32,000 nucleotides of DNA, taken from positions 12,149 through 44,148 of the IMG/VR virus record IMGVR_UViG_3300045988_037317, one strand, 5' to 3'. Positions 2,899 to 30,548 of this stretch are shown here, one piece after another. The stretch is from a virus. Within the stretch, counting starts at the first letter, position 1. Every line of letters starts with the position of its first letter. Under the pieces are notes generated by a model. That model saw nothing but the letters and a program-made list of their open reading frames with translations. It did no database searches and was not told the DNA's origin. The position numbers and the translations under genes are program-made.

Positions 2899-5800
2899 AG
2901 TCGGTGCTAGGTTAGTCCTTGACATTAAGGATGCCGAAGCAAAGATAAAACAACTTGAAAAAGAGTTAAAAGATATTGAAAAGGCAAAGCTTAAATTTGA
3001 TGCTAGCACTAATGAATTAGAAAAAATTAAGGCAAGATTAGAAGAAATCAAAAAAGAAAAGGAAGCTTTGGAAAGACAAAAACTTTCTTTAAAAGTTGAT
3101 TTGGATAATCTAGCTAATTTCAAGAATCAATTATTGGATATTAAAGATGATATTAGTGAGCTTAAAAAAGAGTTATTAGCCTTGAACAATAAAAAGCTTT
3201 CTATTGATATTGATTTAAAAGCAAATGCCAATGAAATTCATGATGTCATTAATGACATTACACTAGGTGAAAACGATAAAAGCGACAAGCTTAAAGACCT
3301 ATACAGTGCACGTGAAGCTCTCAAATATGATATGCGAGAGGTTGGCATTGAAATTGATGAAGTACAAAAGAAAATTAACAATCTTAACAAAGAGAAGATA
3401 AAGATTGAAGCTAACATCAGTGAATTAAATGATGCTCAAAAATTGGTTGATGAGATTGATGATTCAATCGCAGATTTAGATAAAGAAAAAATAAAATTAG
3501 AAGCTGATTCTTCTAAGTTAGAAGATACAAATAAAAAGCTAGATGAAACAATCGAAAAAGAGAATGATGTAAGAAACACAAAAGCTGATATTGAGTCACA
3601 AGTTATCGGCTATCAAGATAGTTTGAATAAACTAAACAATCTTCAACAAGCTGCTAAAGCTTTGAAAGCTGCTAGTAAGGTTACATTTGATGTCGGAAAT
3701 AAAATGTCAAATCTAGGCTCTAGTATGTTGAACATTGCCAAGAATTTCCAAAACAATCCAATAGGAGATATTGGACGATTCTTAGTACAAGGTGTTGGAT
3801 ATCCTAGTTTGTATAGATTGGTTTCAGGTGCACAAAACGCAATGGGCGAAGCATTTTCAAACGGTGTTAAAAGATACGATACAATCAAAGTTGCGAAAAG
3901 AACATTGTCCACTGTAGTAGGTGATGTAGACGATTCTACAACGAAAATCCAAAAGATGATTGATAACCTAGATGAAAGCATTTTGGGCCTACCAACCACT
4001 TTAGATGACGCTCTAAGCCATGTTACGAGATTTACTTCAATCAATCATGATTTAGATAGGTCTCAAAAGCTATTCTCGGCAATTAATGATTCCATTTTGA
4101 CATTCGGTGGTGATTCTGAGGGGGTAAACAATGCGGTTACTCAGTATTCTCAAATCATGGGTTCTAAAATGGATGCTCGTACATTGAGATCAATGGAAGA
4201 TGCAGGTATGACACCAGCCTTAACTGCTATTGCAAAGAAATTTAATATGTCATTTGCAGAGTTTAGAGAAGCATTTACAGGTTCAAATCCAACTATTTCA
4301 TTACAACAATTTGAAGATGCTCTGATTGAATTGGATGAAAAAGGTGGTGGTGGCCTAAATTCGTTGGCAACTATGGTTAAATCATCTGTAGCCACAATCT
4401 CAAACGGTCTTGACTTAATCCCTAAGAGATTTAGTAAAGCCGAAGAAAAGTGGTTAGGTGCATTAGATGAGGTTTCAACGGAATTAACAGGAGCTACAAT
4501 TTACGGAAATATCTATAAACTTTCTCAAAAAGTTGAAGGCTTAGGAGATATAGGAGCAAACTTCATTAGAAGCCATAAAAAAGAAATTGGCGAAGGCATA
4601 GACTTCATTAAAACGAAGTTCTCTGAATTATTGAGCGTTTTAAAAACGTTTAGTTTCAAAGATTTTGTTGGTGGATTTAAACAAGGATTAGATGATTTCA
4701 AAGGAGCAATTGATTTCTTCAAGCCTCTTGTTAGCGGTCTATATAATTTTGCAAAAGATAAAATCACCGAAATGGGAGACGGAAGCTTTTCTAAAGGATT
4801 AGGACGTTTCGTATCAGACTACATCCAAATTGGTATTGGATTAAAGTATGCTGGTAAGTTAATGAAACTTGGAAGCGGTGGAATTAGCCTTTTAGGAGAT
4901 TTAGTAAACATTTCTTCAAAATTCAAAGGAAAAAGTTTCAATATTCCATTCCTAGGAAAATTAGGAAGTAAATTTAGTTCTATTAAAGATGCATTCAAGA
5001 GTTCAGATGAGATTACTACTGCGGCAGGCACACCAAAAACTTTTGATGTAGAAGGATTTAAAAATAAATTATCTTCATTAGCTATCATAGCTGGTGGGGC
5101 AGGAACAATTATTCTTTATTGCAAAGCGATAAAGGAAATTGAAAAGAATGTTCCAAATGACATTACAACATTGCCTATGCGATTAACAAATTTGTTCTCT
5201 GTAATGGGATTGATGATGGGAGCTAACACACTTAATACAGCAGTTTCAAAAGCATTAGAGATGAACAATGCATTAACAGGATTAGCAATGATGATTGGTC
5301 AAGGCGGAGCTTTATGGCTATTTGCAAAAGCTATGCAAGAGCTAGATAAGACTATGCCTGATGGATTTGACACATTTAATGATAAGTTATTAGGCTTATT
5401 TGAGTGCATTGGCTCTATGACACTTATTACAGGTATTCAAGGTGGTGCCGGTGTCCTAACGGGTGGAATCACTACATTGGCCCAAGTGCTAGGAATGGTA
5501 ACAACAACAGGACTAGCTGGTACGTTGATTGCTTGTGCTAAGGCTATGCAAGAAGTCGATAAGAATGTTCCTTCAAACACAAAAGGATTGAAAAAGAAAA
5601 TCCAAGGAATTATGGATGTCATAGATATGTTTGAAGGTGGAGGAACATATTCTTCTTGGTGGAGTCAAGTTATTAAAAGTTCTGAGTCTTTATGGAAAAA
5701 TATGGAGACTTGGAATATTACTAGGATTCTAAAGAAACTTGTTACTATTGGAGAATCAATTTCAAAAGTGCAAGGAATGAGTATTGATAGCAGTTCTTTC

Positions 5801-13719: not shown

Positions 13720-14187
13720 ATGGAAAACAAATATAGCACTTCGGGAATTGGAGAAGATATTATCCGTAGTTTTACACAAATTGCAAGTGCAGAACTACAC
13801 GCTAAAACCTTATTAGAAAAACGTATTTCTGAGGTTGAAAACGGATTGATTAGTGAAGAAGAAATTCCTGATAATTTAGAAAAGATTGAAGCACTAAAGG
13901 ATGAAATTGATGATTATGCCAATATCAGACGTTCTCAAATGCTTTATCTATACAATTCTTTTGGTGGCAAAGGGGATAGAGAACAGTGGTGTTTAGTTAA
14001 ACATTTAAGTATGGCTATGTACACTGCATTTGAAGCGTATCAAGCTTCGGATAGAGACCCTGAATTATTGAATATTGCTTTGGAGATTAACAAGAAGTTC
14101 ATTGAAGCTTGCACTAAGTTCTTAGGTGTAGAAATTACTTCTTGTGCATCTTGTTTTGCAGACATTATGAAAGCTGGAGGAAAATAA
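13720..14187 (+). CDS. Hypothetical protein
   Basis: 155-aa ORF with RBS aaaggagg upstream. Predicted helical and acidic. No motif recognised. Confidence 0.5.
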   Translation: MENKYSTSGIGEDIIRSFTQIASAELHAKTLLEKRISEVENGLISEEEIPDNLEKIEALKDEIDDYANIRRSQMLYLYNSFGGKGDREQWCLVKHLSMAMYTAFEAYQASDRDPELLNIALEINKKFIEACTKFLGVEITSCASCFADIMKAGGK

Positions 14188-14188
14188 T

Positions 14189-14851
14189 ATGCAACCTGTA
14201 GTATGTAATAAAGATATGGCGGTAGTATTTCCTTTAAAAGACGGTGATTGTCAATTTTGGCTAGAAATCGTTGATTCTGTAAATGATATTACTAATCCAA
14301 GCAGAGACCATGCGTATGTGGATTCAAAAGGATTGTTCTATATCTACAACGGAAAAGAAATTCAAGTAATCAATGACCATGCGAATCTGAAAATCAAATG
14401 GGGAAATATGATTGGTGATATTTCTAATCAATTGGATTTAATGGAAATTCTAAATCAATTCGTAAAGACAATTTCTGTAAACGGGACAAACATTGCCAAA
14501 GACAACAAAAAAAACATTGCTATTCAAGTGCCTATCACAACTATTAAATTAGATGGAAATACAATTAGTCCTGTTGATTATATTGTCAATCTAGATTTAG
14601 CTAGTGTTTATGCAAAGAAAACTGAAATCCCTAAAAATGTATCTGAACTTCAAAATGATGCTGGATATATTAAACAAGAAGTTGTAGATCAATTAGTGCC
14701 TATCAAAACAATCAAGGTTAATAACGTAACGATACCGCCTGATGAAAACCATGCAGTAAATATTGAAGCGATTCGTTATAAAGTTGGAACTGCCGACCCT
14801 ACTACAACAAATTGTCCTAACGGATATTTCTACTTTCAGATAGGAGACTAA
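14189..14851 (+). CDS. Tail-fibre-like protein with three short beta-repeat units
   Basis: 220 aa with three related units: ISVNGTNIAKDNKKNIAIQV, IKLDGNTISPVDYIVNLDL and IKVNNVTIPPDENHAVNIE. These are reminiscent of fibre-shaft repeats in Gram-positive phages. Confidence 0.5.
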   Translation: MQPVVCNKDMAVVFPLKDGDCQFWLEIVDSVNDITNPSRDHAYVDSKGLFYIYNGKEIQVINDHANLKIKWGNMIGDISNQLDLMEILNQFVKTISVNGTNIAKDNKKNIAIQVPITTIKLDGNTISPVDYIVNLDLASVYAKKTEIPKNVSELQNDAGYIKQEVVDQLVPIKTIKVNNVTIPPDENHAVNIEAIRYKVGTADPTTTNCPNGYFYFQIGD

Positions 14852-14854
14852 TCT

Positions 14855-16345
14855 ATGGCTTATGTAGGTGGAGGATGGGAATTACTTGCAACCCATCTGA
14901 TTTGGACATACAGTGGCAAATGCAATATGTATTTCCAAGTATACGCACGGAGCGAACAAGATGCTATAAATAATAGGTCTACAGTCCATACAAGAACTAG
15001 GATTTTAGTTGAAAATAAAAACCCAAACTATTCAGGTTATCGTGTTGAACAAGATTGGTCAGCTGGTGTTACAGGAGCGCCGGATTACAGTAGCCATGCT
15101 ACATTAACAGATGGTGGAGCTGGTACAAGCAAGGAATATATTCTACATAATGGTTCATTTACTGTTAACCATGATTCTAATGGTAATGCATCAAGTGAAG
15201 TATATTATTGGTTTAACGGAACATATACAGGAGCTATAGGAAGTCCTACAAGCGCAAACGTAGTATACATTTCGCTTCCTAATATTGATAGAACTGCACC
15301 AAAAGCAACAATAAGCAATGTTGGAAGTACATACAATACAATGTACTGTACAATTTCTGTTCCGTTTTATTCTGAGGAAAACCAATGGAGTCGTGACGGG
15401 AAAACATGGACGGATTGGAATAAAGTAATAAATGCCGATACTCCTTTTGTAGATACATGGACAGGGTTAAAGCCGAACACAAAATACACTGGATATTATC
15501 GTTTTAAAAGGAAATACAATGGAGTTTGGAGTGAAGCGGTCGATTTTACTGCTACCACTAAATATCCTAATGCACCTTCAAAAGGAAGTGTTTCTTCAAG
15601 TTCGATAACATCCAACTCCGCAAAAGTTAGTTGGAGCGGATTCTCATTAGGAGATATGGCTACTGATTATTCTTATCAAACATCTAATGATGAAAATAAT
15701 TGGACAGACCGAGGAAAAGAAACAAGCTTGATCCTTGGCAATTTAAAGCCAAATACGAAGTATAAATTCTATGTAAGAATGGTTGATAACTATGGTCAAC
15801 CTTCGTTGGCAGCTAGTACATCATTTACGACGTTGAACCCTGAAAAACCAAATGTAGGTGGTATTGAATGTACACGGTTAACACCGTTTGGCGGTATGTT
15901 TTATTGGTATGGATTCTCTGTAAATGAAGGAGCTACAATAGATCATTACGAATATCCGCTAGACAATTCAAATTGGATTAATGTAGGAACTGATACGCAA
16001 ATTAATTTAGACAATTTAAGCCCTGAAACAAGTTATACATTATACGTTCGTGTAGTTGATAACTTCGGTTCTAAATCAGATAGTGCTACATTCGATTTTA
16101 AAACATTGGTTGACCAATTGAAGATTGCCTACAACTCAAATACGTATGAAGAAAACATCCTTACAAAAGGCGGAGTAGACATCTTAGCTAAGAATGGAGA
16201 TAACTTGATTGTTGATGTTCTTGGTAGAGAAAGGCTTAGAACTGCTAGAGTTTTCTACAACGATAACGGAGTAATAAAGAAAGTAAAAGCAGTTTATTTC
16301 AATAAGAAAGGTAAGATTCTACGTCATACAAACTATGGCAGTTAG
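14855..16345 (+). CDS. Fibre/receptor-binding-module protein with three fibronectin type III-like repeats
   Basis: 496 aa. It has three FN3-like units ending LKPNTKYTGYYRFKR...DFTATT, LKPNTKYKFYVRMVDNYG...SFTTL and LSPETSYTLYVRVVDNFG...DFKTL. Confidence 0.65.
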   Translation: MAYVGGGWELLATHLIWTYSGKCNMYFQVYARSEQDAINNRSTVHTRTRILVENKNPNYSGYRVEQDWSAGVTGAPDYSSHATLTDGGAGTSKEYILHNGSFTVNHDSNGNASSEVYYWFNGTYTGAIGSPTSANVVYISLPNIDRTAPKATISNVGSTYNTMYCTISVPFYSEENQWSRDGKTWTDWNKVINADTPFVDTWTGLKPNTKYTGYYRFKRKYNGVWSEAVDFTATTKYPNAPSKGSVSSSSITSNSAKVSWSGFSLGDMATDYSYQTSNDENNWTDRGKETSLILGNLKPNTKYKFYVRMVDNYGQPSLAASTSFTTLNPEKPNVGGIECTRLTPFGGMFYWYGFSVNEGATIDHYEYPLDNSNWINVGTDTQINLDNLSPETSYTLYVRVVDNFGSKSDSATFDFKTLVDQLKIAYNSNTYEENILTKGGVDILAKNGDNLIVDVLGRERLRTARVFYNDNGVIKKVKAVYFNKKGKILRHTNYGS

Positions 16346-16356
16346 GAGGTATATAA

Positions 16357-16563
16357 ATGGGTGTTAGAATTGCAGAATTGCCTTCAAGCAAAGGCATTTC
16401 AAAAACAGATTTAATTATCGTCCAAGATAATGAAGCTACCAAACAAGGTACAGTCCAACAATTAGATGATTCTTTAGGCGTAAGTAGGCTTAGAGAAGAA
16501 TTTGAAGCGTTGGGATTATCTGTAGACGAAGAAGGATATATTGTTCAGGAGGTACAAGAATAA
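16357..16563 (+). CDS. Small hypothetical protein (68 aa)
   Basis: RBS taggagg 8 nt upstream. Its TAA overlaps the ATG of the DGR target gene (TAATG). Confidence 0.5.
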   Translation: MGVRIAELPSSKGISKTDLIIVQDNEATKQGTVQQLDDSLGVSRLREEFEALGLSVDEEGYIVQEVQE

Positions 16564-17750
16564 TGGCAAAACACAAAATTTTAACGGATGAAACAGGAGA
16601 AAAAATTGTAAAAGCATTAAATATTATTGCTCAAAACGGAATTTCGCATCAATCAATGGATTGGCAGAAGGTAAGAACATTAATTGCAAATGGAGTTGGT
16701 GAAAGTGCGTTTGCTATTGGTACACAATTATTAGAGGATTGGACTGATACTGCGGACTCGAACAAGAAGTATACGTTGCCTTGGCAAGTCAATCATTTTG
16801 AGGATATGACTCTAGAGGACGGAGAAGTAGTCCCTGGAATGTGGTTGCAAACGCACTATACTTTACCTTTCGGAATTCAATTTTCGCATCAGAGAGCGTT
16901 TCTAGCGTGTCCTGATGGACTTAGTGCTGGTACTTACAATTTTGATTTTGCAAAGACATGGGGAAATAATGTTAAACCAGGAATTAACTACCAATTCACA
17001 TTAACTAATCCTGTAGAAAGAGGTGGTAGATTAGCTGGATGCTATGGAGCACCAGATACCGCACCTTCAAGTTGGAAGGTTTATTCATATGGAAAAGACG
17101 GGATTACATTAAACGAAACAGTCAATGTTACTGTTGGTAGTGGTGGAACAAATCTAGGAACAATCCCATATGATAGCCGAAGTGGAAATTTAAACTCAGT
17201 ACAAGAAATGGCATATGGATGGAACAGATGGAAAACATCTGCGTTACGACAATGGCTAAACTCAAGTAAGCCAAAAGGGCAGTGGTGGACACCTCAGGAT
17301 CAATGGGATATTTGTCCTGACCAATTAGCTTCTAAAGATGGATTCCTTTGTGGCATGCCTGATGAAATGCTAAATTGTTTAAAAAAAGTAAAGGTAGTTA
17401 CTTATGCTAATACCGTTAATGATGAAGGTGCAGAGGACATCACGTATGATTATGTTACGTTGCCTTCATTATCACAGATGTTCATTAAACCACAAACGAG
17501 CGGAGAAGGTGATGTACACACCTATTGGAAAAGAAGAAGCGGACGTACAACTCCATGCGAATGGTGGACAGATTATCCAAATATGGTTGAGTATTCAATT
17601 GCTAACAAAACATCACCTCAGGGCGTCCGGTTGCGTTCAGCCTCCCGAGGCGATGCTTGTCGTGCGTGGTTTGTGAGCACTAGTGGCTATGTCGGCGGCG
17701 GCGGCGCTTCTTTTGCGAGTCCGTTCGCCCCGCTTGTTTGTGTCGCATAA
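16563..17750 (+). CDS. DGR target protein (putative receptor-binding protein) with C-terminal variable region
   Basis: 395 aa and the last gene of the fibre module. The VR encodes the final 42 codons plus 2 nt of the preceding codon (...QGVRLRSASRGDACRAWFVSTSGYVGGGGASFASPFAPLVCVA). The upstream motifs SALRQWLN and EWW plus the LRS...W.V...G.V...PFAPL pattern resemble the C-type-lectin/FGE-like DGR target fold (from memory). Confidence 0.85.
   Translation: MAKHKILTDETGEKIVKALNIIAQNGISHQSMDWQKVRTLIANGVGESAFAIGTQLLEDWTDTADSNKKYTLPWQVNHFEDMTLEDGEVVPGMWLQTHYTLPFGIQFSHQRAFLACPDGLSAGTYNFDFAKTWGNNVKPGINYQFTLTNPVERGGRLAGCYGAPDTAPSSWKVYSYGKDGITLNETVNVTVGSGGTNLGTIPYDSRSGNLNSVQEMAYGWNRWKTSALRQWLNSSKPKGQWWTPQDQWDICPDQLASKDGFLCGMPDEMLNCLKKVKVVTYANTVNDEGAEDITYDYVTLPSLSQMFIKPQTSGEGDVHTYWKRRSGRTTPCEWWTDYPNMVEYSIANKTSPQGVRLRSASRGDACRAWFVSTSGYVGGGGASFASPFAPLVCVA
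17617..17741 (+). repeat. DGR variable repeat (VR)
   Basis: Aligns without gaps to 18288-18412 (offset 671). It differs at 17652, 17662, 17664, 17694, 17695, 17700, 17701, 17713, 17733 and 17740. It is 63% G+C (79/125 by my count) in an AT-rich genome. Confidence 0.9.
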
Positions 17751-17760
17751 ATCTAAAATC

Positions 17761-17782
17761 GGGGCAGACAACGTACTGCCCC
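17761..17782 (+). promoter_or_regulatory. GC-rich hairpin downstream of VR (candidate DGR target-recognition hairpin/cruciform)
   Basis: ggggcag-acaacgta-ctgcccc: a perfect 7-bp stem with an 8-nt loop, 20 nt after the VR end and 11 nt after the stop codon. No T-tract follows (ccccatgcaatg), so it is not a canonical intrinsic terminator. Confidence 0.55.
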
Positions 17783-17804
17783 ATGCAATGAAAGGAATCA
17801 TTAA

Positions 17805-18248
17805 ATGGCAACTAATGTAAATGAAAGAAATGTACCTGATACACCAACAAATAAAATGTTGGATTGTTTGTGGGAAGCTAGAAACTTGTCTTTGTATACT
17901 GTAAAGATTTGTTCAAACACAAACAATTTTCCGCCTGAGTATTATCAGACAATGACGGGTGACATGATTAAGAAGGCAAAAGATATATACAGGCTAGGAA
18001 AAAGAGCAAATGCAATCTATGTTCAAGGTAAGACAGGACATGAAAGATGGAAAGAACGCAGTAGATACCAACGTGAAGCCATTTTCCTTTGTATAGATTT
18101 ATTGTCTGATATAGATGTAGCTAAAACATTATTTAATATCCGTGGAAAACGTGTTAAATATTGGACTAAGCAAGTAGTAACAGTAAAGAGAATGTATATC
18201 GCATGGCATAATGCAGATAAAGAGCGATATGCAAAATATATCAATTAG
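17805..18248 (+). CDS. avd: Accessory variability determinant (Avd-like)
   Basis: 147-aa basic, predicted helical ORF (K/R-rich: KRANAIYVQGKTGHERWKERSRYQREAIF...KRVKYWTKQVVTVKRMYIAWHN). It sits in the canonical slot between VR and TR. RBS aaagga. Confidence 0.7.
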   Translation: MATNVNERNVPDTPTNKMLDCLWEARNLSLYTVKICSNTNNFPPEYYQTMTGDMIKKAKDIYRLGKRANAIYVQGKTGHERWKERSRYQREAIFLCIDLLSDIDVAKTLFNIRGKRVKYWTKQVVTVKRMYIAWHNADKERYAKYIN

Positions 18249-18287
18249 TAATTATTAATAAATACTAATACGGGATGTAGGTTGATT

Positions 18288-18412
18288 CTCAGGGCGTCCG
18301 GTTGCGTTCAGCCTCCCGAGGCTATGCTTGTCTTACGTGGTTTGTGAGCACTAGTGGCTATGTCAACGGCAACGGCGCTTCTTATGCGAGTCCGTTCGCC
18401 CCGATTGTTTAT
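18288..18412 (+). repeat. DGR template repeat (TR)
   Basis: The non-coding copy of the VR, lying between avd and the RT. It retains A where VR has G, T or C, including two AAC codons that correspond to GGC in VR. It has 17 adenines, 8 of them substituted in VR. Confidence 0.9.
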
Positions 18413-18598
18413 CAATTTAAACTATATGGTCAACCTTAGATGTTGATACGATTTGATATGTGTAAACAAGGAATCTCATCCCTGCTCATTAGAGCGAACA
18501 ATACCGCATAATATACATAAATCAGTGTATTTTGCCACCGATGTTAGAGCCTCTTAAAAAAAGATGGTAGCTAACTATGACGGAAGGAAACTATTATT
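18413..18598 (+). ncRNA. TR-RT spacer, presumed 3' part of the DGR template RNA
   Basis: 186 nt without an ORF between TR and the RT start. It contains tcaacct (18430-18436), complementary to aggttga (18279-18285) just upstream of TR. The role is inferred by analogy with the Bordetella phage BPP-1 Sp region. Confidence 0.4.
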
Positions 18599-19642
18599 TT
18601 GGAAATAAAAGAATATATTACAGACTACGATCAATTGTTTGATTCAATGTTGAAATGTAAGAAAAATGTATCTTGGAAACCTAGCGTTAAATCATTTGTT
18701 TTAAATGGTGTAGAAAATTGTTTGAAGATGGAAGAACAATTGCAAAACGATACATGGATAAACAGAAAGCCTAAACCGATTGTTGTTACATATCCAAAAA
18801 GAAGGGAATGTTTAAGTATTCCTTTTAGAGATAGAGTTTATCAACGTAGTATTAACGATAATTCATTATATCCTCAAACAACAAAGCACTTTGTTTATAC
18901 AAATATAGCTTGTCAAAAGTTCAAAGGAACAAAGAAAGCTATGGATGTAATGAGACAATATCTTCATAGATATTACATCAACAACAAAACGAATGTAGGC
19001 TATGTTGTATGGATAGATATACATGGATATTATCAAAACATGAGGCATAAAGATGTTAATGAATGTTTTTATAAGATGTGCGATTCAGATACTGCTAGTA
19101 TGTCTCAAGATGTGTTAGATACACAATATTCAGGAGATATTGGATATAATCCAGGTTCTCAAATGGTTCAGATTGCTGGTATAAGCTTATTGAATGAATT
19201 AGACCATTTCATCAAAGAAAAACTACATTGCAAAAGTTTCATAAGATATATGGATGATTCATATTTGATTACAAATGACAAAGAAAAAGCGAAACAATGG
19301 AAGAAAATAGTTTGTGATAAGTTAATCGAATTAGGGTTTGAACCTAACCCAAAGAAAGCCAAGATTATAAGAATAGATAAAGGATTTATGTTTCTTGGAT
19401 TTAAAGCTACATTATCAAAAACGGGCAAGGTTTATTACAACCTAAGTTCAGAAAACATAAAACATGAAAGGCGAAAATTAAAGAAACAAGTCATTAAAGC
19501 TAAGAAAGGTGAAATGACAAAAGAAGAAATTGATGCAAGCCTTAATAGTTGGAAATCACACGCTGAATTAGGGAATACGTACAAGTTATTGCAAAGAATA
19601 GATGCGTATTACGCTAATCTATGGAAGGAGATAAAAGTATGA
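18599..19642 (+). CDS. DGR reverse transcriptase
   Basis: 347 aa with a TTG start. Motifs: SIPFRDRVYQRSI (compare PFRDRV of DGR RTs), DIGYNPGSQMVQI (an IGxxxSQ-like signature with one extra residue) and IRYMDDSYLI (YMDD catalytic box). There is no maturase or endonuclease extension. Confidence 0.9.
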   Translation: MEIKEYITDYDQLFDSMLKCKKNVSWKPSVKSFVLNGVENCLKMEEQLQNDTWINRKPKPIVVTYPKRRECLSIPFRDRVYQRSINDNSLYPQTTKHFVYTNIACQKFKGTKKAMDVMRQYLHRYYINNKTNVGYVVWIDIHGYYQNMRHKDVNECFYKMCDSDTASMSQDVLDTQYSGDIGYNPGSQMVQIAGISLLNELDHFIKEKLHCKSFIRYMDDSYLITNDKEKAKQWKKIVCDKLIELGFEPNPKKAKIIRIDKGFMFLGFKATLSKTGKVYYNLSSENIKHERRKLKKQVIKAKKGEMTKEEIDASLNSWKSHAELGNTYKLLQRIDAYYANLWKEIKV

Positions 19643-19836
19643 TTATCAAACAATTAGATGTTTCTATCGACAAACAAGCGGAAGAAGAATACCAAGCTTC
19701 TCAAATTCAATCTACAAAAGACGAATTGGCAAATCAAAAGTTTCTAACAGAATACGTTGCTTGTATGGCAGACATTGAATTACCTGTTGACGAAGAAGAA
19801 ACGGAGGGAATGATTCATGTACAGGATTTTGAATAA
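19639..19836 (+). CDS. Small acidic hypothetical protein (65 aa)
   Basis: ATG 19639 overlaps the RT stop (ATGA), with aaggag 7 nt upstream. The track's upstream in-frame ATG 19621 lacks an RBS. Confidence 0.5.
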   Translation: MIIKQLDVSIDKQAEEEYQASQIQSTKDELANQKFLTEYVACMADIELPVDEEETEGMIHVQDFE

Positions 19837-19960
19837 TCAGAAAAGCAGAGTGATTGATGGAAAATATAGTAAAGATAATTATATTTTCTTAGTTGAACAA
19901 GCTTATAATAAAAATAAAATCACTAAAGCAGAATATCAAGAGTTGATTGATTTTGAGTAA
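19817..19960 (+). CDS. XkdX-like small phage protein (47 aa)
   Basis: ATG 19817 follows ggaggga. Translation: MYRILNNQKSRVIDGKYSKDNYIFLVEQAYNKNKITKAEYQELIDFE. The C-terminal K-ITKAEYQELI pattern and the position before the holin match XkdX-family proteins (from memory). Below the track cutoff. Confidence 0.5.
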   Translation: MYRILNNQKSRVIDGKYSKDNYIFLVEQAYNKNKITKAEYQELIDFE

Positions 19961-20177
19961 TTTCGAGTATATTCAATATTTATTAGATATTATTGATAAG
20001 CAAAATAAAATCATTCAAGAACAGAATGAGATTCTATATATGAATGGAATTGATGTTTTGGACAAAGAGAAAGGGCGATAATGTACGTCCTTTTCTTTTC
20101 ATTATATAATTGAGATGCCATAAAACAGTACCTCAGAAAATATGAGAGAGATGAAATATTTTTGGAGGTGTAAATTT

Positions 20178-20558
20178 ATGAATGTACAAGATTTTTTAAC
20201 TTTATTACAGACTGTTGCTACTTTAGTTTGTGGTGGATTAGCTTTATATTTCAAATTCAGTACAAAAGCTAAAACCAAAGCAAAGGAAGTGCAAGAAGTG
20301 ATTGCTAGAATTACTGCACAAGCAGTTGTTTACATTAAAGAAGCAGAGGACAACTACAAAGATACAACTAATGCAGGTGGCAAGAAGTTTGAAGAAGTTG
20401 TTAGTAAGCTTTATGATCTAGTACCTGATGCATTGCATGGAATTATCACAAAAGAAATGATTAGTGAAATTGTTCAAAGTACTTTTGATGAAATTGAAGA
20501 ATACGTTAAGATTCAATTAGATAATGGAATTGATAAAATCAACGTCAAAGGTGACTAA
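20178..20558 (+). CDS. Holin (LL-H-family-like)
   Basis: ATG 20178 lies 9 nt after ggagg; the track start 20142 has no RBS. It has a single N-terminal TM helix (LLQTVATLVCGGLALYF) followed by a charged helical domain. Located two genes upstream of the endolysin. Confidence 0.6.
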   Translation: MNVQDFLTLLQTVATLVCGGLALYFKFSTKAKTKAKEVQEVIARITAQAVVYIKEAEDNYKDTTNAGGKKFEEVVSKLYDLVPDALHGIITKEMISEIVQSTFDEIEEYVKIQLDNGIDKINVKGD

Positions 20559-20959
20559 TGGGAAAAGTTATCACTATTGATTTAGAATATGTTTTATGGC
20601 TTCTAGGTTTCATTGCTTCCGCTTGGGGAGTAGTAAAGATTATTAAAGAGCTAAAGAAACCTAATGACAATTTAAAAGAAACTGTTAGAAAACACGAAGA
20701 ATGGTTAGCAAGAGATAATGAGAGAATTAAATCAATCGAAAGCTTAGTTATCACACAAGAAGGGATTAAGAAAGAATTGAATGAACATTCTAGAATGTTA
20801 GGGGAACATGAGGAAAGATTAGAAGAAGATAAGCAACGTGGTAATTTGACATTAAAAGCAAATATCGCAATTATCAACAATATGCTTTCTGAAAACGAAA
20901 AAGACAAGCTCCAAGAAACTAGAGACGAGATTCAAGACTTTCTGCTAGATAAAAACTAA
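20558..20959 (+). CDS. Membrane-anchored coiled-coil protein in the lysis cassette
   Basis: TAATG coupling to the holin. It has an N-terminal TM helix (LEYVLWLLGFIASAWGVV) followed by a charged coiled coil. Confidence 0.5.
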   Translation: MGKVITIDLEYVLWLLGFIASAWGVVKIIKELKKPNDNLKETVRKHEEWLARDNERIKSIESLVITQEGIKKELNEHSRMLGEHEERLEEDKQRGNLTLKANIAIINNMLSENEKDKLQETRDEIQDFLLDKN

Positions 20960-21058
20960 GGAGGAAAGAAATATGGAAGAAAAAGAAGTAAAATTTGAAG
21001 ATTTATCAGAAGAAGCTCAATCTGAGTTATCAAATGGAAAAGAAGAAGGTGAAGAAGA

Positions 21059-22156
21059 ATGTCATATTCAAGCTTAACAAATAAATATATTCCTGCTAGC
21101 GCAGACAACTATATGCGAGGACGTGGTGGCTATAAAGTATGTAAAATTACACCACACCACATGGCGTGTCAGTGGAGTGCCGAAAGATGTGCTCAATCAT
21201 TCCAAGTAAGTGGAAGAATGGCTAGTGCAAACTATTGTATCGGGTCAGATGGAACGATTGTTTCGAATGTTGATGAAGAAAATAGAGCATGGACATCATC
21301 AAACTACTACAACGATTGCCAATCAATTACAATTGAAGTTGCAAATGAAACGTGTGCGCCTAATTGGACTATCTCAACTAAAGCATGGAATGCATTGGTA
21401 AATTTATGTGTCGATATTTGTAAGAGATACGGATTTAGATTAAATTACACAGGAAACGCAAATGGAAGTTTGACAGAGCATAGAATGTTTGCAAGTACAA
21501 GTTGCCCAGGTCCTTTCCTACACGATAGAATGCCTCAATTAGCACAAGAAGTAAATGCTAGATTAGACGGTCAGACTGTAGCACCAAGCGCTCCTAGCAC
21601 TCCAAGCGCTCCAAGTGGTGAAAAGTATTCAGTCGGTACACCTATCTGCACAAATACATTAAGCGTTAACTGCTACGGAACTTCTAAAATCTTAAAAGGA
21701 GATTGGAGTGGAACAATCGGACGTGTAATCAAAGGTGCTAAATATCCATATCGTGTTGATCGTAATGGGGTAGCTATTGGATGGACAAATGATGCAGGTA
21801 TCGATACAGACCCTCATACACCAGTAGGAACGACGCAATCAAGTAGTGAAGCTATCGACCAAATCTTGCACGAAGGAAGCTATGTTACATCTGTGCACAT
21901 GAAAATCGGCAATCAAGGTTTGAAGAAAATCGGCGATGATTTATGTGCATACCTATCACAATTAGGCGGTTGGTTTCCAATTCGTATGGTAGACAAAGTG
22001 CCAAATTCAGATGGATATAATGACAATGTATTGCACACCACAAATGCAGTTGTCTATGTAACTAGAATCAGAGTTGATGCGGTTAATGTTCAAAAGAATA
22101 TTGTTAAAATTGGCGGTATTTGGGTTGACCCAACACCATTAACAGAAATTGCGTAA
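21059..22156 (+). CDS. Endolysin: N-acetylmuramoyl-L-alanine amidase (Amidase_2/PGRP-type) with a C-terminal binding region
   Basis: ITPHHMA...ASANYCIGSDGTIV...NRAWTSSN...SITIEVANE...LTEHRMFASTSCPG matches the Amidase_2 Zn-ligand pattern (H, H, C). A linker APSAPSTPSAPSG is followed by a ~180-aa C-terminal domain. Confidence 0.85.
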   Translation: MSYSSLTNKYIPASADNYMRGRGGYKVCKITPHHMACQWSAERCAQSFQVSGRMASANYCIGSDGTIVSNVDEENRAWTSSNYYNDCQSITIEVANETCAPNWTISTKAWNALVNLCVDICKRYGFRLNYTGNANGSLTEHRMFASTSCPGPFLHDRMPQLAQEVNARLDGQTVAPSAPSTPSAPSGEKYSVGTPICTNTLSVNCYGTSKILKGDWSGTIGRVIKGAKYPYRVDRNGVAIGWTNDAGIDTDPHTPVGTTQSSSEAIDQILHEGSYVTSVHMKIGNQGLKKIGDDLCAYLSQLGGWFPIRMVDKVPNSDGYNDNVLHTTNAVVYVTRIRVDAVNVQKNIVKIGGIWVDPTPLTEIA

Positions 22157-26697: not shown

Positions 26698-26937
26698 ATG
26701 ACGCAAACAGAAAGAGTTATCAAGCACCTAAAGGAGCATGGTACGATCATTCCTTTAGAAGCTATCAGAGAATATGGAATCACTCGTTTAGGTGCAAGGA
26801 TTTGGGATTTAAGAGACTTGGGGTATGACATTGAAACTCAAACCGAAACTTCAAAAAATCGGTTTGGAGATAAAACATCATATGCCAAGTACGTATTAAA
26901 AGGAGGGGCTAAAAATGAATCTGTATCAAGACACTGA
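26698..26937 (+). CDS. Small winged-helix/HTH DNA-binding protein
   Basis: 79 aa. ERVIKHLKEHGTIIPLEAIREYGITRLGARIWDLRDLGYDIET is typical of small phage winged-helix proteins. Confidence 0.45.
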   Translation: MTQTERVIKHLKEHGTIIPLEAIREYGITRLGARIWDLRDLGYDIETQTETSKNRFGDKTSYAKYVLKGGAKNESVSRH

Positions 26938-27586
26938 AAAGTTTAGTGTTGAAAAGTATGGAAGTCATGAAGAATGGTTAAAAAAGCGTGGATGTGGTAT
27001 TGGTGGCTCGGATGCAGCGTGCTTCATGAATTTAAACCCATGGAAAACGCTTAATCAGTTGTGGCATGACAAGAAGTTTGGATCACAACAAATCACAAAT
27101 GATGCTATCGAGTATGGCAATACTGCAGAGCCTTGTTTAAGAACGCTATTTCAAGCCAAACATCCTGAGTTAGATGTGCAATACGTGGATAACGTTACAT
27201 TGGTTTCTAAAGAACATGAGTTCTTGAGATACAGTCCTGATGGATTGATTTACAACAAGGAAACCGGTGAAAGAGGAATCTTGGAAATCAAAACATCTAA
27301 GATAATGAATCAACAGAGTTTAGATAAGTGGGGAACAAATGGGGAGAAAGCAGTTCCTAATAACTACTATTGCCAAACTTTAGAGGGATTGATCGTTACG
27401 GATTTCGACTTTGTTATTTATTGTGCAGAACTAAGATTTTTAAATGGCAAAGCATGGATAATAGAGCGTTCATACAGAAAAGAAGAAGCACTAGATAGTA
27501 TGAATGAACTAAAAGAAAACATGTTAGAAAAGTGGGATATGTACTTTGTTAATGATGTAGAACCGCCTACCCCATTGTCTTTATAA
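26915..27586 (+). CDS. YqaJ-like (lambda Exo-type, PD-(D/E)XK) recombination exonuclease
   Basis: WLKKRGCGIGGSDAACFMNLNPWKT...SPDGLI...GILEIKTSK matches the YqaJ N-terminal and D...E-x-K catalytic pattern. Confidence 0.8.
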   Translation: MNLYQDTEKFSVEKYGSHEEWLKKRGCGIGGSDAACFMNLNPWKTLNQLWHDKKFGSQQITNDAIEYGNTAEPCLRTLFQAKHPELDVQYVDNVTLVSKEHEFLRYSPDGLIYNKETGERGILEIKTSKIMNQQSLDKWGTNGEKAVPNNYYCQTLEGLIVTDFDFVIYCAELRFLNGKAWIIERSYRKEEALDSMNELKENMLEKWDMYFVNDVEPPTPLSL

Positions 27587-28454: not shown

Positions 28455-29285
28455 ATGATTCAAAACAATATTGCTAAAAAGCCACAGGCTTCATTCGCAT
28501 CTTACGTAAAGTCTGATGCAGTACTTGCAAATATCACAAAAACTTTAGGAAGTGCAACAAGAGGAAAGAAATTTGTTGCATCCATTATCAGTGCAGTTAA
28601 TACGGATAAGAAATTAATGGAATGTGATTTTCCAACGATTATAAGTGCAGGAATCGTAGGTGATTCTTTGAACTTATCACCAAGTCCACAATTAGGACAC
28701 TACTACATGGTGCCATTCAGAGACACTAAGAACAATCGTACAGTCGCTACATTCCAACTTGGATATAAAGGTTATCTTCAATTAGCTATTCGTTCAGGTC
28801 AATATAAGAAAATCAATGTTGTAGCAGTTAAAGATGGTGAATTGTTAAGCTATAACCCATTTACAGAAGACATTGAAGTAAGAGCAATTACAGACCCATT
28901 AGAACGTGAAAAAGCTCCTACTATTGGATATTACGGAATGTTTGAATTGACTAATGGTTTTACTAAATCAATGTACTGGTCAAAAGAAACAATGGAAGAA
29001 CACGCTCAGAAATATTCTAAAGGGTATGCAGCTCATAAGGGATATACATTCTGGGAAAAAGATTTTGACGGAATGGCTTTCAAAACTATCTTACGTCAAT
29101 TGATTTCTAAATGGGGAATCATGAGCATTGAAATGCAAACTGCAATTGAAACAGATATGTCATTTAAAGATGATGTAAGTTCTGAACCTGTTTATTTCGA
29201 TAGTGAAGAAAATCAACAAGTAGAACAAGTTCAAGTATATCAAGAACAAACATATCAAGAACCAGAGGGCGTAAGTCTTGTATAA
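28455..29285 (+). CDS. recT: RecT-family single-strand annealing protein
   Basis: YYMVPFRD...ATFQLGYKGYLQLAIRSGQYKKI is the RecT core pattern. It is adjacent to the YqaJ exonuclease. Confidence 0.85.
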   Translation: MIQNNIAKKPQASFASYVKSDAVLANITKTLGSATRGKKFVASIISAVNTDKKLMECDFPTIISAGIVGDSLNLSPSPQLGHYYMVPFRDTKNNRTVATFQLGYKGYLQLAIRSGQYKKINVVAVKDGELLSYNPFTEDIEVRAITDPLEREKAPTIGYYGMFELTNGFTKSMYWSKETMEEHAQKYSKGYAAHKGYTFWEKDFDGMAFKTILRQLISKWGIMSIEMQTAIETDMSFKDDVSSEPVYFDSEENQQVEQVQVYQEQTYQEPEGVSLV

Positions 29286-29589: not shown

Positions 29590-30052
29590 ACTGTTGTTTA
29601 AATACAATCCATTCAAAATCAAGCATTGGAAAGATGAAGAAATTCAAGAACAATTAGGAATCCTAGTTGATGCTTATATCTCTGATGCAGAAACAGTAAT
29701 GGAAATGGCGTTAAATGTCGAAAACCTAGCGAATCAAATGTTCTTGATTGGTGAAATGATAGCTAGATTACAGGAAAGCTCAAACATTTTGAAAGCAGAC
29801 ATTGAAAACAAAACAAATCAAGAGATTTATGTTGCACGTAGTACTTGGGAACGTGAGCATGATGGAAAGGCACCTAGTATTAAATACTTTGAAGCTTTAG
29901 CAGGTCAAAAAGTTTCTGAGGAAAGAACTAAGTTTGCAAAAGTTGATTCTGATTTAAAACGTTTCAAAACTGCTTACGAAAGTATTGAAGCAAAGATGAA
30001 CTCAGAAAAGAAAAAACTTGATGCTACTAAGTTTGAGATTGGAGGTGCGTAG
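29573..30052 (+). CDS. Hypothetical coiled-coil protein
   Basis: 159-aa ORF overlapping the HNH 3' end by 17 nt. No motif recognised. Confidence 0.45.
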   Translation: MLSQNELLFKYNPFKIKHWKDEEIQEQLGILVDAYISDAETVMEMALNVENLANQMFLIGEMIARLQESSNILKADIENKTNQEIYVARSTWEREHDGKAPSIKYFEALAGQKVSEERTKFAKVDSDLKRFKTAYESIEAKMNSEKKKLDATKFEIGGA

Positions 30053-30053
30053 G

Positions 30054-30548
30054 ATGATTTTAGGTATTGATCCAGCAAATGAATACAGTGCATTTGTTGT
30101 GGTAGAAAATGATTTATCGGCAGTTGTTGATAAAGGGAAAATATCTAACTTGGAATTGCAAGATAAAATCTCAAATTGGAAAGCAGAGAATTATCCAATT
30201 GATTATGTGGCGATTGAAGGAATACAAAGTTTCGGTATGCCTGTAGGTCAAACAACATTTGAAACTTGTTACTTTATAGGACGCTTATTGCAGCAATTTG
30301 AAGCTTTCGATATTGAACCTACATTAATATACCGAAGTGAAGAAAAAATGACTCTATGCCACTCTATGAAAGCGAAAGACAGTAATATCATTCAAGCTTT
30401 AATTGATTTGTTCGCTAAAGACACTCCAAACAAAGGAAAAGGAACAAAAAAAGAGCCTGGATATTTCTACGGATTTAAAAAAGACATATGGCAAGCAATG
30501 GCAGTTGCTTACGTTTTCCATACAAAGTACATAGGTACAGAATGCTAG
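30054..30548 (+). CDS. RuvC-like Holliday junction resolvase
   Basis: ATG 30054 follows ggaggtg. MILGIDPANE...(Asp) and DYVAIEGIQ (Glu) fit the RNase H-fold resolvase pattern. The track's upstream start overlaps the previous gene. Confidence 0.5.
   Translation: MILGIDPANEYSAFVVVENDLSAVVDKGKISNLELQDKISNWKAENYPIDYVAIEGIQSFGMPVGQTTFETCYFIGRLLQQFEAFDIEPTLIYRSEEKMTLCHSMKAKDSNIIQALIDLFAKDTPNKGKGTKKEPGYFYGFKKDIWQAMAVAYVFHTKYIGTEC

Follow-up and report, generated by a model that had tools for sequence, protein, structure and literature searches.

A phage DGR cassette with an eroded template in a likely Holdemanella phage of the human gut

The window, a stretch of 32,000 nucleotides from virus record IMGVR_UViG_3300045988_037317, very probably carries a canonical DGR of a temperate, siphovirus-like human-gut phage, whose template (TR) has been worn by homology-driven back-copying of mutagenised sequence. 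The eroded template is what is new in this analysis; otherwise the element is an ordinary DGR and one more gut-phage example.

Anatomy of the cassette

The cassette runs in the order target, Avd-like ORF, TR, 186-nt spacer and 347-aa reverse transcriptase (RT), and, in this temperate phage, is flanked by the tail module on one side and the lysis module on the other. This is the position given in the preliminary description, which also named XkdX-like and holin genes as neighbours; the cassette does precede the lysis module, but the XkdX and holin labels themselves are sub-threshold. Coordinates of the ORFs, both repeats and the spacer were unchanged on re-checking, and the grounds on which a DGR had been recognised (RT clade, Avd, non-coding TR, VR at the 3' end of an ORF, and A-specific divergence) all held. 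The features are as follows.

16563..17750, + strand: 395-aa DGR target, last of the large ORFs in the tail module, with VR at its C-terminal end
17617..17741, + strand: VR, a gap-free repeat with TR; mutagenesis zone ~17622-17721, putative IMH ~17722-17741
17761..17782, no strand assigned: GC-rich inverted repeat GGGGCAG-N8-CTGCCCC, a candidate target-recognition hairpin/cruciform from DNA folding and sister-locus conservation
17805..18248, + strand: Avd-like accessory protein, 147 aa, pI 9.7, with a phrog_3206 match and an AF2 four-helix bundle
18288..18412, + strand: TR, intergenic and eroded, 17 adenines; putative IMH* ~18393-18412
18413..18598, + strand: TR-RT spacer, 186 nt, placed from sequence
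18599..19642, + strand: DGR-clade RT, 347 aa, TTG start, YMDD, motif 4 variant PGSQMVQ
26915-27586, + strand: RecE-like exonuclease (phrog_434, E=4e-36)
28455-29285, + strand: RecT-like annealing protein (phrog_148, E=7e-67)

A repeat-finding tool returned a direct repeat at 17617-17739 / 18288-18410 with 93% identity, and our own alignment reproduced the gap-free 125-nt pair with 115/125 identical positions. VR covers codons 352-393 of the 395-codon target and has a GC content of 63%, against 35% for the window. Eight of the ten mismatches lie at TR adenines, all eight at codon position 1 or 2, and two TR AAC codons read GGC in VR, as first described. With 17 adenines in 125 nt, at least eight of ten mismatches would fall at A by chance with a probability of 4e-6, which rules chance out. 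The count of eight was correct in the preliminary description, but two of them are fixed differences between IMH and IMH* rather than mutagenesis, since they are invariant or nearly so across sister loci: at 17733/18404 (repeat position 116) VR has C in 26/28 loci and TR has A in 35/35, and at 17740/18411 (repeat position 123) VR has G in 28/28 and TR has A in 35/35. The mutagenesis zone of the window thereby holds six A-to-N changes, five of them A-to-G, and two T/G mismatches (A bias P = 2e-4), with 15 adenines left in TR.

The putative IMH opens GC-rich, with CGTTCGCCCCG directly after the last variable A. The hairpin begins 19 nt past the end of VR and has a 7-bp GC-rich stem and an 8-nt loop (ACAACGTA); DNA folding gives -8.7 kcal/mol (z=-2.5), and it is kept in all sister loci. 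Published DGR hairpins or cruciforms are GC-rich, lie 4-34 bp 3' of VR and have stems of 7-10 bp with a 4-nt GRNA loop, which matters in BPP-1 (PMC3240598); stem length and distance here are inside the published range, but the loop is twice as long. A downstream hairpin is present in only 34% of DGRs (PMC5758913). No T-run follows the hairpin on the + strand, and it is terminator-like on the - strand only. Going by its BPP-1 counterpart, the spacer presumably belongs to the DGR RNA; it has no Rfam match, and the fold of TR plus spacer shows no gain over shuffled sequence (z=-0.68).

The RT matches Pfam RVT_1 and phrog_1423 (E=5e-63), and its best PDB match is the RT of the Bordetella DGR RNP (8ub7_A, E=1e-6, residues 6-338 against 11-323). 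Among its relatives at 20-36% identity, 49/87 adjoin a TR and a VR whose mismatches are at least 80% A-specific. Placement in the DGR clade is based on this PDB match and on the relatives' TR/VR pairs. The PFRDRV and YMDD motifs noted earlier are present. IGYNPGSQ, previously proposed as a third motif, was read out of register: in alignment with more than 70 DGR RTs, GYNPGSQMVQ lies opposite GIPIGNLTSQ, and the correct reading is PGSQMVQ. The motif 4 hallmark [I/L/V]GxxxSQ is absent, with P in place of I/L/V and V in place of S, while the G and final Q are retained; the nearest relatives, L035 and L021, retain LGSQVSQ. Adenine mutagenesis at the level of the family shows the variant motif to be compatible with function.

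The Avd-like protein matches phrog_3206, "Avd protein of DGR" (E=2e-10), and has no sequence match in Pfam, NCBIfam or PDB. Its AF2 model (pLDDT 88) is all-helical, with four long helices in a four-helix bundle, bearing out the earlier assignment of a basic helical ORF as Avd. The top PDB folds are 2gsc and 2rld (target-normalised TM 0.84-0.87), and the Avd chain of the DGR RNP, 8ub7_C, ranks 46 (TM 0.67).

Residues 216-343 of the target are a DUF6273 domain (Pfam E=4.9e-7; 30.2 bits, cut-off 23.5), and the protein also matches phrog_19280 (E=4e-24). Profile and sequence searches of PDB returned no match to it, and its AF2 model (pLDDT 45) is too low for a fold call. The preliminary description had suggested that the target family may be uncharacterised. 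DUF6273 is, however, already known as a C-type-lectin-like DGR target: three reports describe targets with this domain (PMC10743442, PMC11792537, bioRxiv 10.1101/2024.10.15.618418), and a CLec-like character with VR at the C-terminus has been published for it. From gene position and this domain, the target is presumed to act in the tail fibre or receptor-binding tip. Homologues number 2913; among the best 119 of these, entropy is 2.5-3.1 bits at residues 354-387 and ~0.1-0.5 bits elsewhere, and the peaks coincide exactly with AAY-templated residues. The consensus TR has 13 AAY codons.

Adenine-specific variation and template erosion in sister loci

We compared 35 sister loci, with VR bases counted in 28 and TR bases in 35; some data sets may overlap, as L016 matches L017 exactly and only 2 nt separate L018 from L118. 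VR variation across this phage family is adenine-specific. In the 28 loci with a counted VR, mismatches between VR and its own TR lie at TR adenines in 421/442 cases, and VR is polymorphic at 32/36 consensus-TR adenine columns, compared with 17/88 other columns. Co-variation of VR and TR, which the preliminary description had associated with an ordinary duplication, is not the general pattern, as flanks and most TRs are constant in related genomes while VR varies at TR-adenine positions. Partial co-variation does occur at former adenine sites only, because the TR of the window is heavily eroded. In the window genome itself the element may still be active: the six A-to-N differences in its one consensus sequence are compatible with recent homing, though no proof of it.

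Adenines number 36 in the family consensus TR and 17 in the window TR. The window TR deviates from the consensus at 21 sites, of which 19 are consensus-A sites (P=6e-9), and at 19/21 the deviant base is that of the window's own VR. Across the family, 76/81 deviant TR bases equal the VR of their own locus, versus 29% for the VRs of other loci. The converted patches are internal (positions 5-59, 59-77 and 95-102), so they are not products of 3'-anchored retrohoming. Other lineages have smaller internal patches, and similar TR changes are found in at least eight genomic backgrounds. Two loci are crossover products: L007 has a VR/TR fusion without avd, and L116 a duplication with a hybrid repeat. 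Together, the VR-matching deviations at A sites and the patches, fusion and duplication elsewhere suggest that mutagenised sequence flows back into TR.

Among the loci compared, the window shows the most advanced erosion (36 to 17 adenines).

Proposed mechanism and alternative explanations

In the preferred reading, the RT and Avd-like protein would reverse-transcribe an RNA spanning TR and the spacer, template adenines would be miscopied, and the cDNA would replace VR, the last ~42 codons of the DUF6273 (C-type-lectin-like) protein, rewriting its presumed ligand-binding surface. This retrohoming chemistry is proposed by homology with BPP-1, and the target would serve in receptor binding. Mutagenised sequence, either VR or cDNA, would also have been back-copied into TR through recombination driven by homology, and this probably took more than one step. 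Such back-copying would have removed 19/36 ancestral adenines, leaving ~11 diversifiable codons (~10^8 proteins) where there were formerly ~18 (~10^18). Recombination may have proceeded through RecA, phage RecET or cDNA annealing, and the RecE/RecT-like proteins are candidate agents of transfer from VR or cDNA to TR. We lean slightly towards the view that natural DGR templates are not fully protected: homology-driven back-flow of VR DNA or free cDNA, possibly via phage RecE/RecT, would act as an adenine-fixing ratchet that shrinks the repertoire, and unequal VR x TR crossovers would delete or duplicate avd.

The strongest competitor, which we consider unlikely, is a fossil DGR with intact ORFs that has lost homing: gene conversion would have made its VR and TR alike, and the differences that persist would be relics of patchy mismatch repair. 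On that view, the six A-to-N differences could be leftovers of patchy conversion rather than new homing. Such a history would account for the loss of TR adenines and for the A-to-G character of 5/6 A-to-N differences, and 34/36 ancestral-A sites fit a mosaic in which TR is either A or the VR base, with later homing unneeded. Decay products also exist in the family, including L019 (without TR and the RT N-terminus), L011 (VR frameshifted) and the avd-less L007. However, none of the three ORFs (RT, Avd and target) is truncated, sister copies of the RT share 96-99% identity with it, and the run AAC GGC AAC GGC in TR against GGC GGC GGC GGC in VR needs several conversion switches within 12 nt. Further, in eroded lineages the retained TR adenines are mutated in VR at the same rate inside patches (16/35) as outside (86/199), as continued homing predicts.

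The T/G mismatches at 18323 and 18333, where the family consensus TR base is A, fit neither simple model and need an extra event.

It is far less probable that metagenome assembly created the eroded TR artificially, by joining VR and TR reads into a chimeric path. The window is a metagenome contig with ~6x coverage, the repeats are 125 nt long and VR populations are heterogeneous, all of which could favour such a path. Yet the unique 5' flank of TR and the first converted site are separated by just 5 shared nt, which would make a k-mer path switch impossible unless reads carry the junction. The similar changes in at least eight backgrounds, their recurrence in two assemblies 2 nt apart (L018 and L118) and the exact target protein on four contigs also argue against an artefact.

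A third reading, in which the repeat is a plain segmental duplication or lies by chance near an RT of another kind (group II intron, retron or Abi/DRT), is refuted: a group II RT/maturase model (TIGR04416) is the best NCBIfam match by E-value, but it scores 76 bits against a 300-bit cut-off, with retron St85 (21.5/235), Drt5 (30/550) and Drt3a (27.5/200) also far under theirs, no group II intron or retron RNA is found in Rfam at E<=1 across 16000-20500, the best PDB match is a DGR RT, RT relatives adjoin TR/VR pairs, and 95% of the 442 family mismatches are at adenines, in agreement with the earlier grouping of this RT with DGRs.

The phage host is probably Holdemanella, a 156-kb MAG contig of which contains an RT 97% identical to that of the window. 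A programmable adhesin would be gained by this likely Holdemanella phage, which is useful for host-range studies and unsurprising. The comparative result is more useful than an extra DGR: the ~30 near-identical cassettes, whose templates have lost adenines to varying extents and which include a TR deletion, a VR/TR fusion and a reciprocal duplication, offer a direct view of DGR ageing and death. They also provide a testable link between a phage's recombination module and template stability, relevant to directed evolution with RecT and DGRs. If back-flow is general, DGR lifespan would be limited, part of the "non-A" TR/VR mismatches in surveys would be explained, and faster erosion is predicted in phages with annealing recombinases.

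Comparison with known DGRs

The BPP-1 DGR (mtd-avd-TR-brt) has the same gene order of target, avd, TR and RT. Both have VR at the 3' end of the target, A-specific mismatches at codon positions 1 and 2, an AAC-rich template, a GC-rich start of the IMH with fixed IMH/IMH* differences, and a GC-rich inverted repeat after VR. The window RT aligns end to end with bRT, at the level of remote similarity only. The window differs from BPP-1 in motif 4 (PGSQMVQ, against IGSLTSQ in BPP-1), in its hairpin loop (8 nt, against GAAA) and in its target, which has DUF6273 and shows no sequence similarity to Mtd detectable in PDB; its TR is eroded, and its host is a low-GC Firmicute.

DGRs with DUF6273 targets have been described in phages of human-gut Firmicutes, namely in the Faecalibacterium phages Lelie, Roos and Pioen (PMC11792537), in nd4 and nd12 (PMC10743442) and in a Toutatisvirus hotspot (bioRxiv 10.1101/2024.10.15.618418). 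These too are temperate gut phages with VR at the C-terminal end of a DUF6273 target and a cassette that adjoins tail genes, and the window RT is homologous to those of nd12 (31% identity), Lelie (28%) and Roseburia phage Shimadzu (28%). The window phage differs in belonging to a separate lineage, in having just one target and in lacking Ig-like "tentaclin" domains; the closest deposited record, MT835491.1, is unannotated (RT 47%, target 46% identity). The available text of the same three reports describes no template erosion, whereas the window TR is eroded.

When a DGR is combined with a RecT-type annealing protein, as in DGRec (bioRxiv 10.1101/2025.03.24.644984) and an E. coli DGR (bioRxiv 10.64898/2026.07.21.739853), mutagenised cDNA is installed by homology alone. 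Such RecT-assisted engineered DGRs mutagenise their own TR ("TR self-mutagenesis"), and RT-independent homologous recombination between TR and VR was also seen in these systems (both reports). Those are artificial plasmid systems, whereas the evidence from the window is natural and drawn from comparison, and the phage RecT may take part. The window phage resembles them in having RecE/RecT-like genes together with A-site changes in TR.

Gene content and identity of the retroelement cassette

The window, identical to a 45.7-kb metagenome contig of ~6x coverage (ENA ERZ1742712 NODE_368), carries a real and complete diversity-generating retroelement (DGR) of the familiar phage type, whose target domain is likewise known. 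The target occurs in identical form on three other contigs. All open reading frames and coordinates of the preliminary description proved exact on recheck. Genes for a structural protein, a tape measure protein, tail proteins and an FN3-repeat protein lie upstream of the cassette, and small ORFs, a weak holin candidate and an amidase endolysin follow downstream. Farther downstream are an integrase, an anti-repressor, a RecE-like exonuclease, a RecT-like annealing protein, a Holliday-junction resolvase and replication genes. The principal features are:

16563-17750, target gene, with the variable repeat (VR) at 17617-17741
17805-18248, Avd-like ORF
18288-18412, template repeat (TR), non-coding
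18413-18598, spacer between TR and the reverse transcriptase (RT) start, 186 nt
18599-19642, RT
19817-19960, XkdX-like candidate, 47 aa (sub-threshold Pfam match, E=0.054)
20142-20558, holin candidate (sub-threshold Pfam match, E=0.009)
21059-22156, amidase endolysin (E=5e-19, solid)
26915-27586, RecE-like exonuclease
28455-29285, RecT-like ssDNA-annealing protein
30018-30548, Holliday-junction resolvase

The RT matches Pfam RVT_1 and phrog_1423, and its closest solved relative, aligned over residues 6-338, is chain A of 8ub7, entitled 'Diversity-generating retroelement (DGR) ribonucleoprotein reverse transcriptase' in the fold library. Models for group II RT/maturases, Drt5, Drt3a and retrons all scored far under their curated cut-offs. 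To test the clade by function, 87 loci with RT relatives of ~20-36% identity were taken from the genomes of IMG/VR and GTDB. For 49 loci, no less than 80% of the mismatches in the best internal repeat pair fall on adenines of a single copy, and in most of the 49 the adenine-bearing copy is directly upstream of the RT. The sequence IGYNPGSQ, previously listed as an RT motif, was out of register: in an alignment with over 70 DGR RTs, GYNPGSQMVQ faces GIPIGNLTSQ, and the DGR hallmark [ILV]GxxxSQ reads PGSQMVQ in the window (motif 4, 19129-19158, residues 177-187). A proline occupies the position equivalent to Ile181 of bRT, the RT from the DGR in Bordetella phage BPP-1; adenine-specific mutagenesis is seen in the phage family despite this motif.

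The ORF in the Avd slot encodes a basic protein (pI 9.7), and its proposed identity is borne out by a match to phrog_3206 ('Avd protein of DGR', E = 2e-10). Pfam and NCBIfam gave no match, and sequence and profile searches of the PDB were empty or at chance level. An AF2 model (pLDDT 88) consists of four long helices; the top matching folds are 2gsc and 2rld (target-normalised TM 0.84-0.87), and the Avd chain of 8ub7 is among its structural matches.

Residues 216-343 of the target protein match Pfam DUF6273 with a score exceeding the gathering threshold, and VR (codons 352-393) therefore sits at the C-terminal end of this domain. Published work presents DUF6273 as a C-type-lectin-like domain of DGR targets in which VR is C-terminal (PMC10743442, PMC11792537, bioRxiv 10.1101/2024.10.15.618418). 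The AF2 model of the whole target, built with 35 close homologues, has a pLDDT of 45, which leaves the C-type-lectin fold unconfirmed; the PDB, queried with the target by sequence and by profile, gave nothing or matches at chance level. Residue 335 (17565-17567), located 17 codons upstream of VR and not templated by TR, is hypervariable across 119 homologues (Y44, W40, R10, F10, N6, H3) and may be a binding-site residue that diversifies through ordinary mutation.

Adenine-specific variation in the repeats

A repeat finder recovered 17617-17739 and 18288-18410 (93% identity) as the sole long direct repeat within 16000-20000. The gap-free alignment over 125 nt has 10 mismatches, eight of them at adenines of the intergenic copy, as first reported, and all eight affect the first or second codon position in the coding copy. 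This proportion has a low probability by chance (P = 4e-6) because TR holds just 17 adenines in 125 nt. The remaining two mismatches pair a T in TR with a G in VR (18323, 18333), and both fall on adenine positions of the family consensus TR. While the count of eight stands, its reading as mutagenesis does not extend to 17733/18404 and 17740/18411. These are fixed differences (VR has C in 26/28 and G in 28/28 loci, respectively; TR has A in 35/35), and they mark IMH versus IMH*, the 3' ends of VR and TR, after the GC-rich start (CGTTCGCCCCG). GC content is 63% in VR, 56% in TR and 35% in the window, and many A-to-G replacements supply part of the VR excess in the window copy. An Rfam search (E<=1) of 16000-20500 returned only a chance miRNA match and nothing from RNA families of introns, retrons or DGRs. 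The predicted RNA fold of TR plus spacer is not better than that of shuffled sequences (z=-0.68), so no structural claim is made for the spacer.

We compared 35 sister loci with RTs 96-99% identical to that of the window (20 from IMG/VR, 1 from a Holdemanella MAG and 14 from gut-metagenome contigs); a pattern scan of IMG/VR found no contigs beyond those already in the set. Of the 442 mismatches between a VR and its own TR, counted over the 28 loci that have both repeats, 421 are at TR adenines. Across all TR-adenine sites, VR has A (58%), G (19%), T (17%) or C (6%). Polymorphic VR columns comprise 32/36 of the consensus-TR adenines versus 17/88 positions elsewhere. In an independent comparison of the 119 best target homologues (80-93% identical), entropy is 2.5-3.1 bits, with 10-14 residue types, at exactly the AAY-templated residues 354-387, versus ~0.1-0.5 bits in the rest of the protein. 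Such variation is the mark that mutagenic retrohoming leaves on a population, and on the tests proposed in the preliminary description the family-wide comparison of VR with TR decides in favor of a DGR. One VR (L011, about 4014-4139) has a +1-nt insertion that truncates the target at 372 aa, and four others (L003, L008, L013, L016) have one additional codon facing the AAC run of TR; indels at AAC repeats are already known (PMC5758913).

Erosion of the template repeat

Most sister loci have the same TR, here the consensus, which contains 36 adenines and 13 AAY codons. The window TR retains 17 adenines, the lowest number among all 35, and 15 of the 17 lie upstream of the IMH. It deviates from the consensus at 21 positions, 19 of which are consensus adenines (P = 6e-9), and 19 of the 21 match the base in the window's own VR. 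At least eight other backgrounds show smaller losses of TR adenines (L013, L016/L017, L018/L118, L006, L008, L122, L020, and L010). Consensus-adenine sites hold 81 deviant TR bases when all loci are pooled; 76 of these equal the base of the locus's own VR, compared to 29% for the VRs of other loci. Since the changes are confined to adenine sites, their source must be mutagenised products of the DGR itself, whether VR DNA or cDNA. The theoretical repertoire is reduced from ~18 variable codons (~10^18 proteins) to ~11 (~10^8).

Retained TR adenines are mutated in VR at similar frequencies inside (16/35) and outside (86/199) the eroded patches, and the target, Avd-like and RT ORFs are all intact in the window. 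Judged from these sequences, this is consistent with homing that continued after erosion. A one-step, patchy conversion of TR by VR with no later homing would explain the window almost as well, and current activity of this DGR is therefore rated only as likely. Such a conversion requires an extra event at the two T/G sites, as does sequential erosion followed by re-homing.

The eroded patches are internal (positions 5-59, 59-77, and 95-102) with other adenines intact, and the four AAC codons near the TR 3' end are untouched in several eroded cases. They are thus not products of classical 3'-anchored retrohoming into TR, which was rejected as the sole route: several patches spare the TR 3' half and its 17 normally variable adenines. 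The patches instead point to homology-driven exchange as a probable route. One sister locus (L007, 4690-4812) has a single VR/TR hybrid repeat and has lost avd, and another (L116, 573-698 and 1251-1373) carries avd in tandem duplicate together with a hybrid repeat that joins a TR 5' flank to a VR 3' flank; these are reciprocal products of unequal crossover between VR and TR. In a third (L019, about 5000-5013), a deletion equivalent to 18057-18725 of the window removed TR and the RT N-terminus. An assembly artefact is an unlikely source of the eroded TR, since merely 5 nt of shared sequence separate its unique flank from the first converted site, and erosion recurs across backgrounds and in two assemblies with 2 nt of sequence difference.

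Host and comparison with known DGRs

The phage host is probably Holdemanella, because a Holdemanella MAG contains, within a 156-kb contig, an RT 97% identical to that of the window. A Megablast search with 14000-22000 gave no match among deposited phages. The nearest deposited phage, the unannotated MT835491.1, is not close (47% RT and 46% target identity), and the named DGR phages nd12, Shimadzu, Lelie, and VP585 have 28-31% identity.

An inverted repeat at 17761-17782, 19 nt past VR, forms a 7-bp GC-rich stem that is kept in relatives. Its stem and distance are within the published ranges (PMC3240598), but the loop has 8 nt in place of the published 4-nt GRNA sequence. Read on the minus strand, the hairpin (17760-17783) is followed by a T-rich tail and has a terminator-like score; the plus strand has no T-run after it, and genes of 90 aa or more are absent from the minus strand within ~2.7 kb.

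This element is of moderate interest, through the comparative evidence that mutagenised sequence flows back into the template rather than through the cassette itself. Literature searches of incomplete coverage, not aimed at this question alone, found no description of natural TR erosion. The phage RecE/RecT-like proteins and Holliday-junction resolvase may drive the VR/TR exchanges as plausible agents, and we infer the tie between the RecE/RecT-like genes and TR erosion. In engineered systems, RecT-assisted DGRs mutagenise their own TR, and RT-independent recombination between TR and VR has been observed (bioRxiv 10.1101/2025.03.24.644984, 10.64898/2026.07.21.739853).
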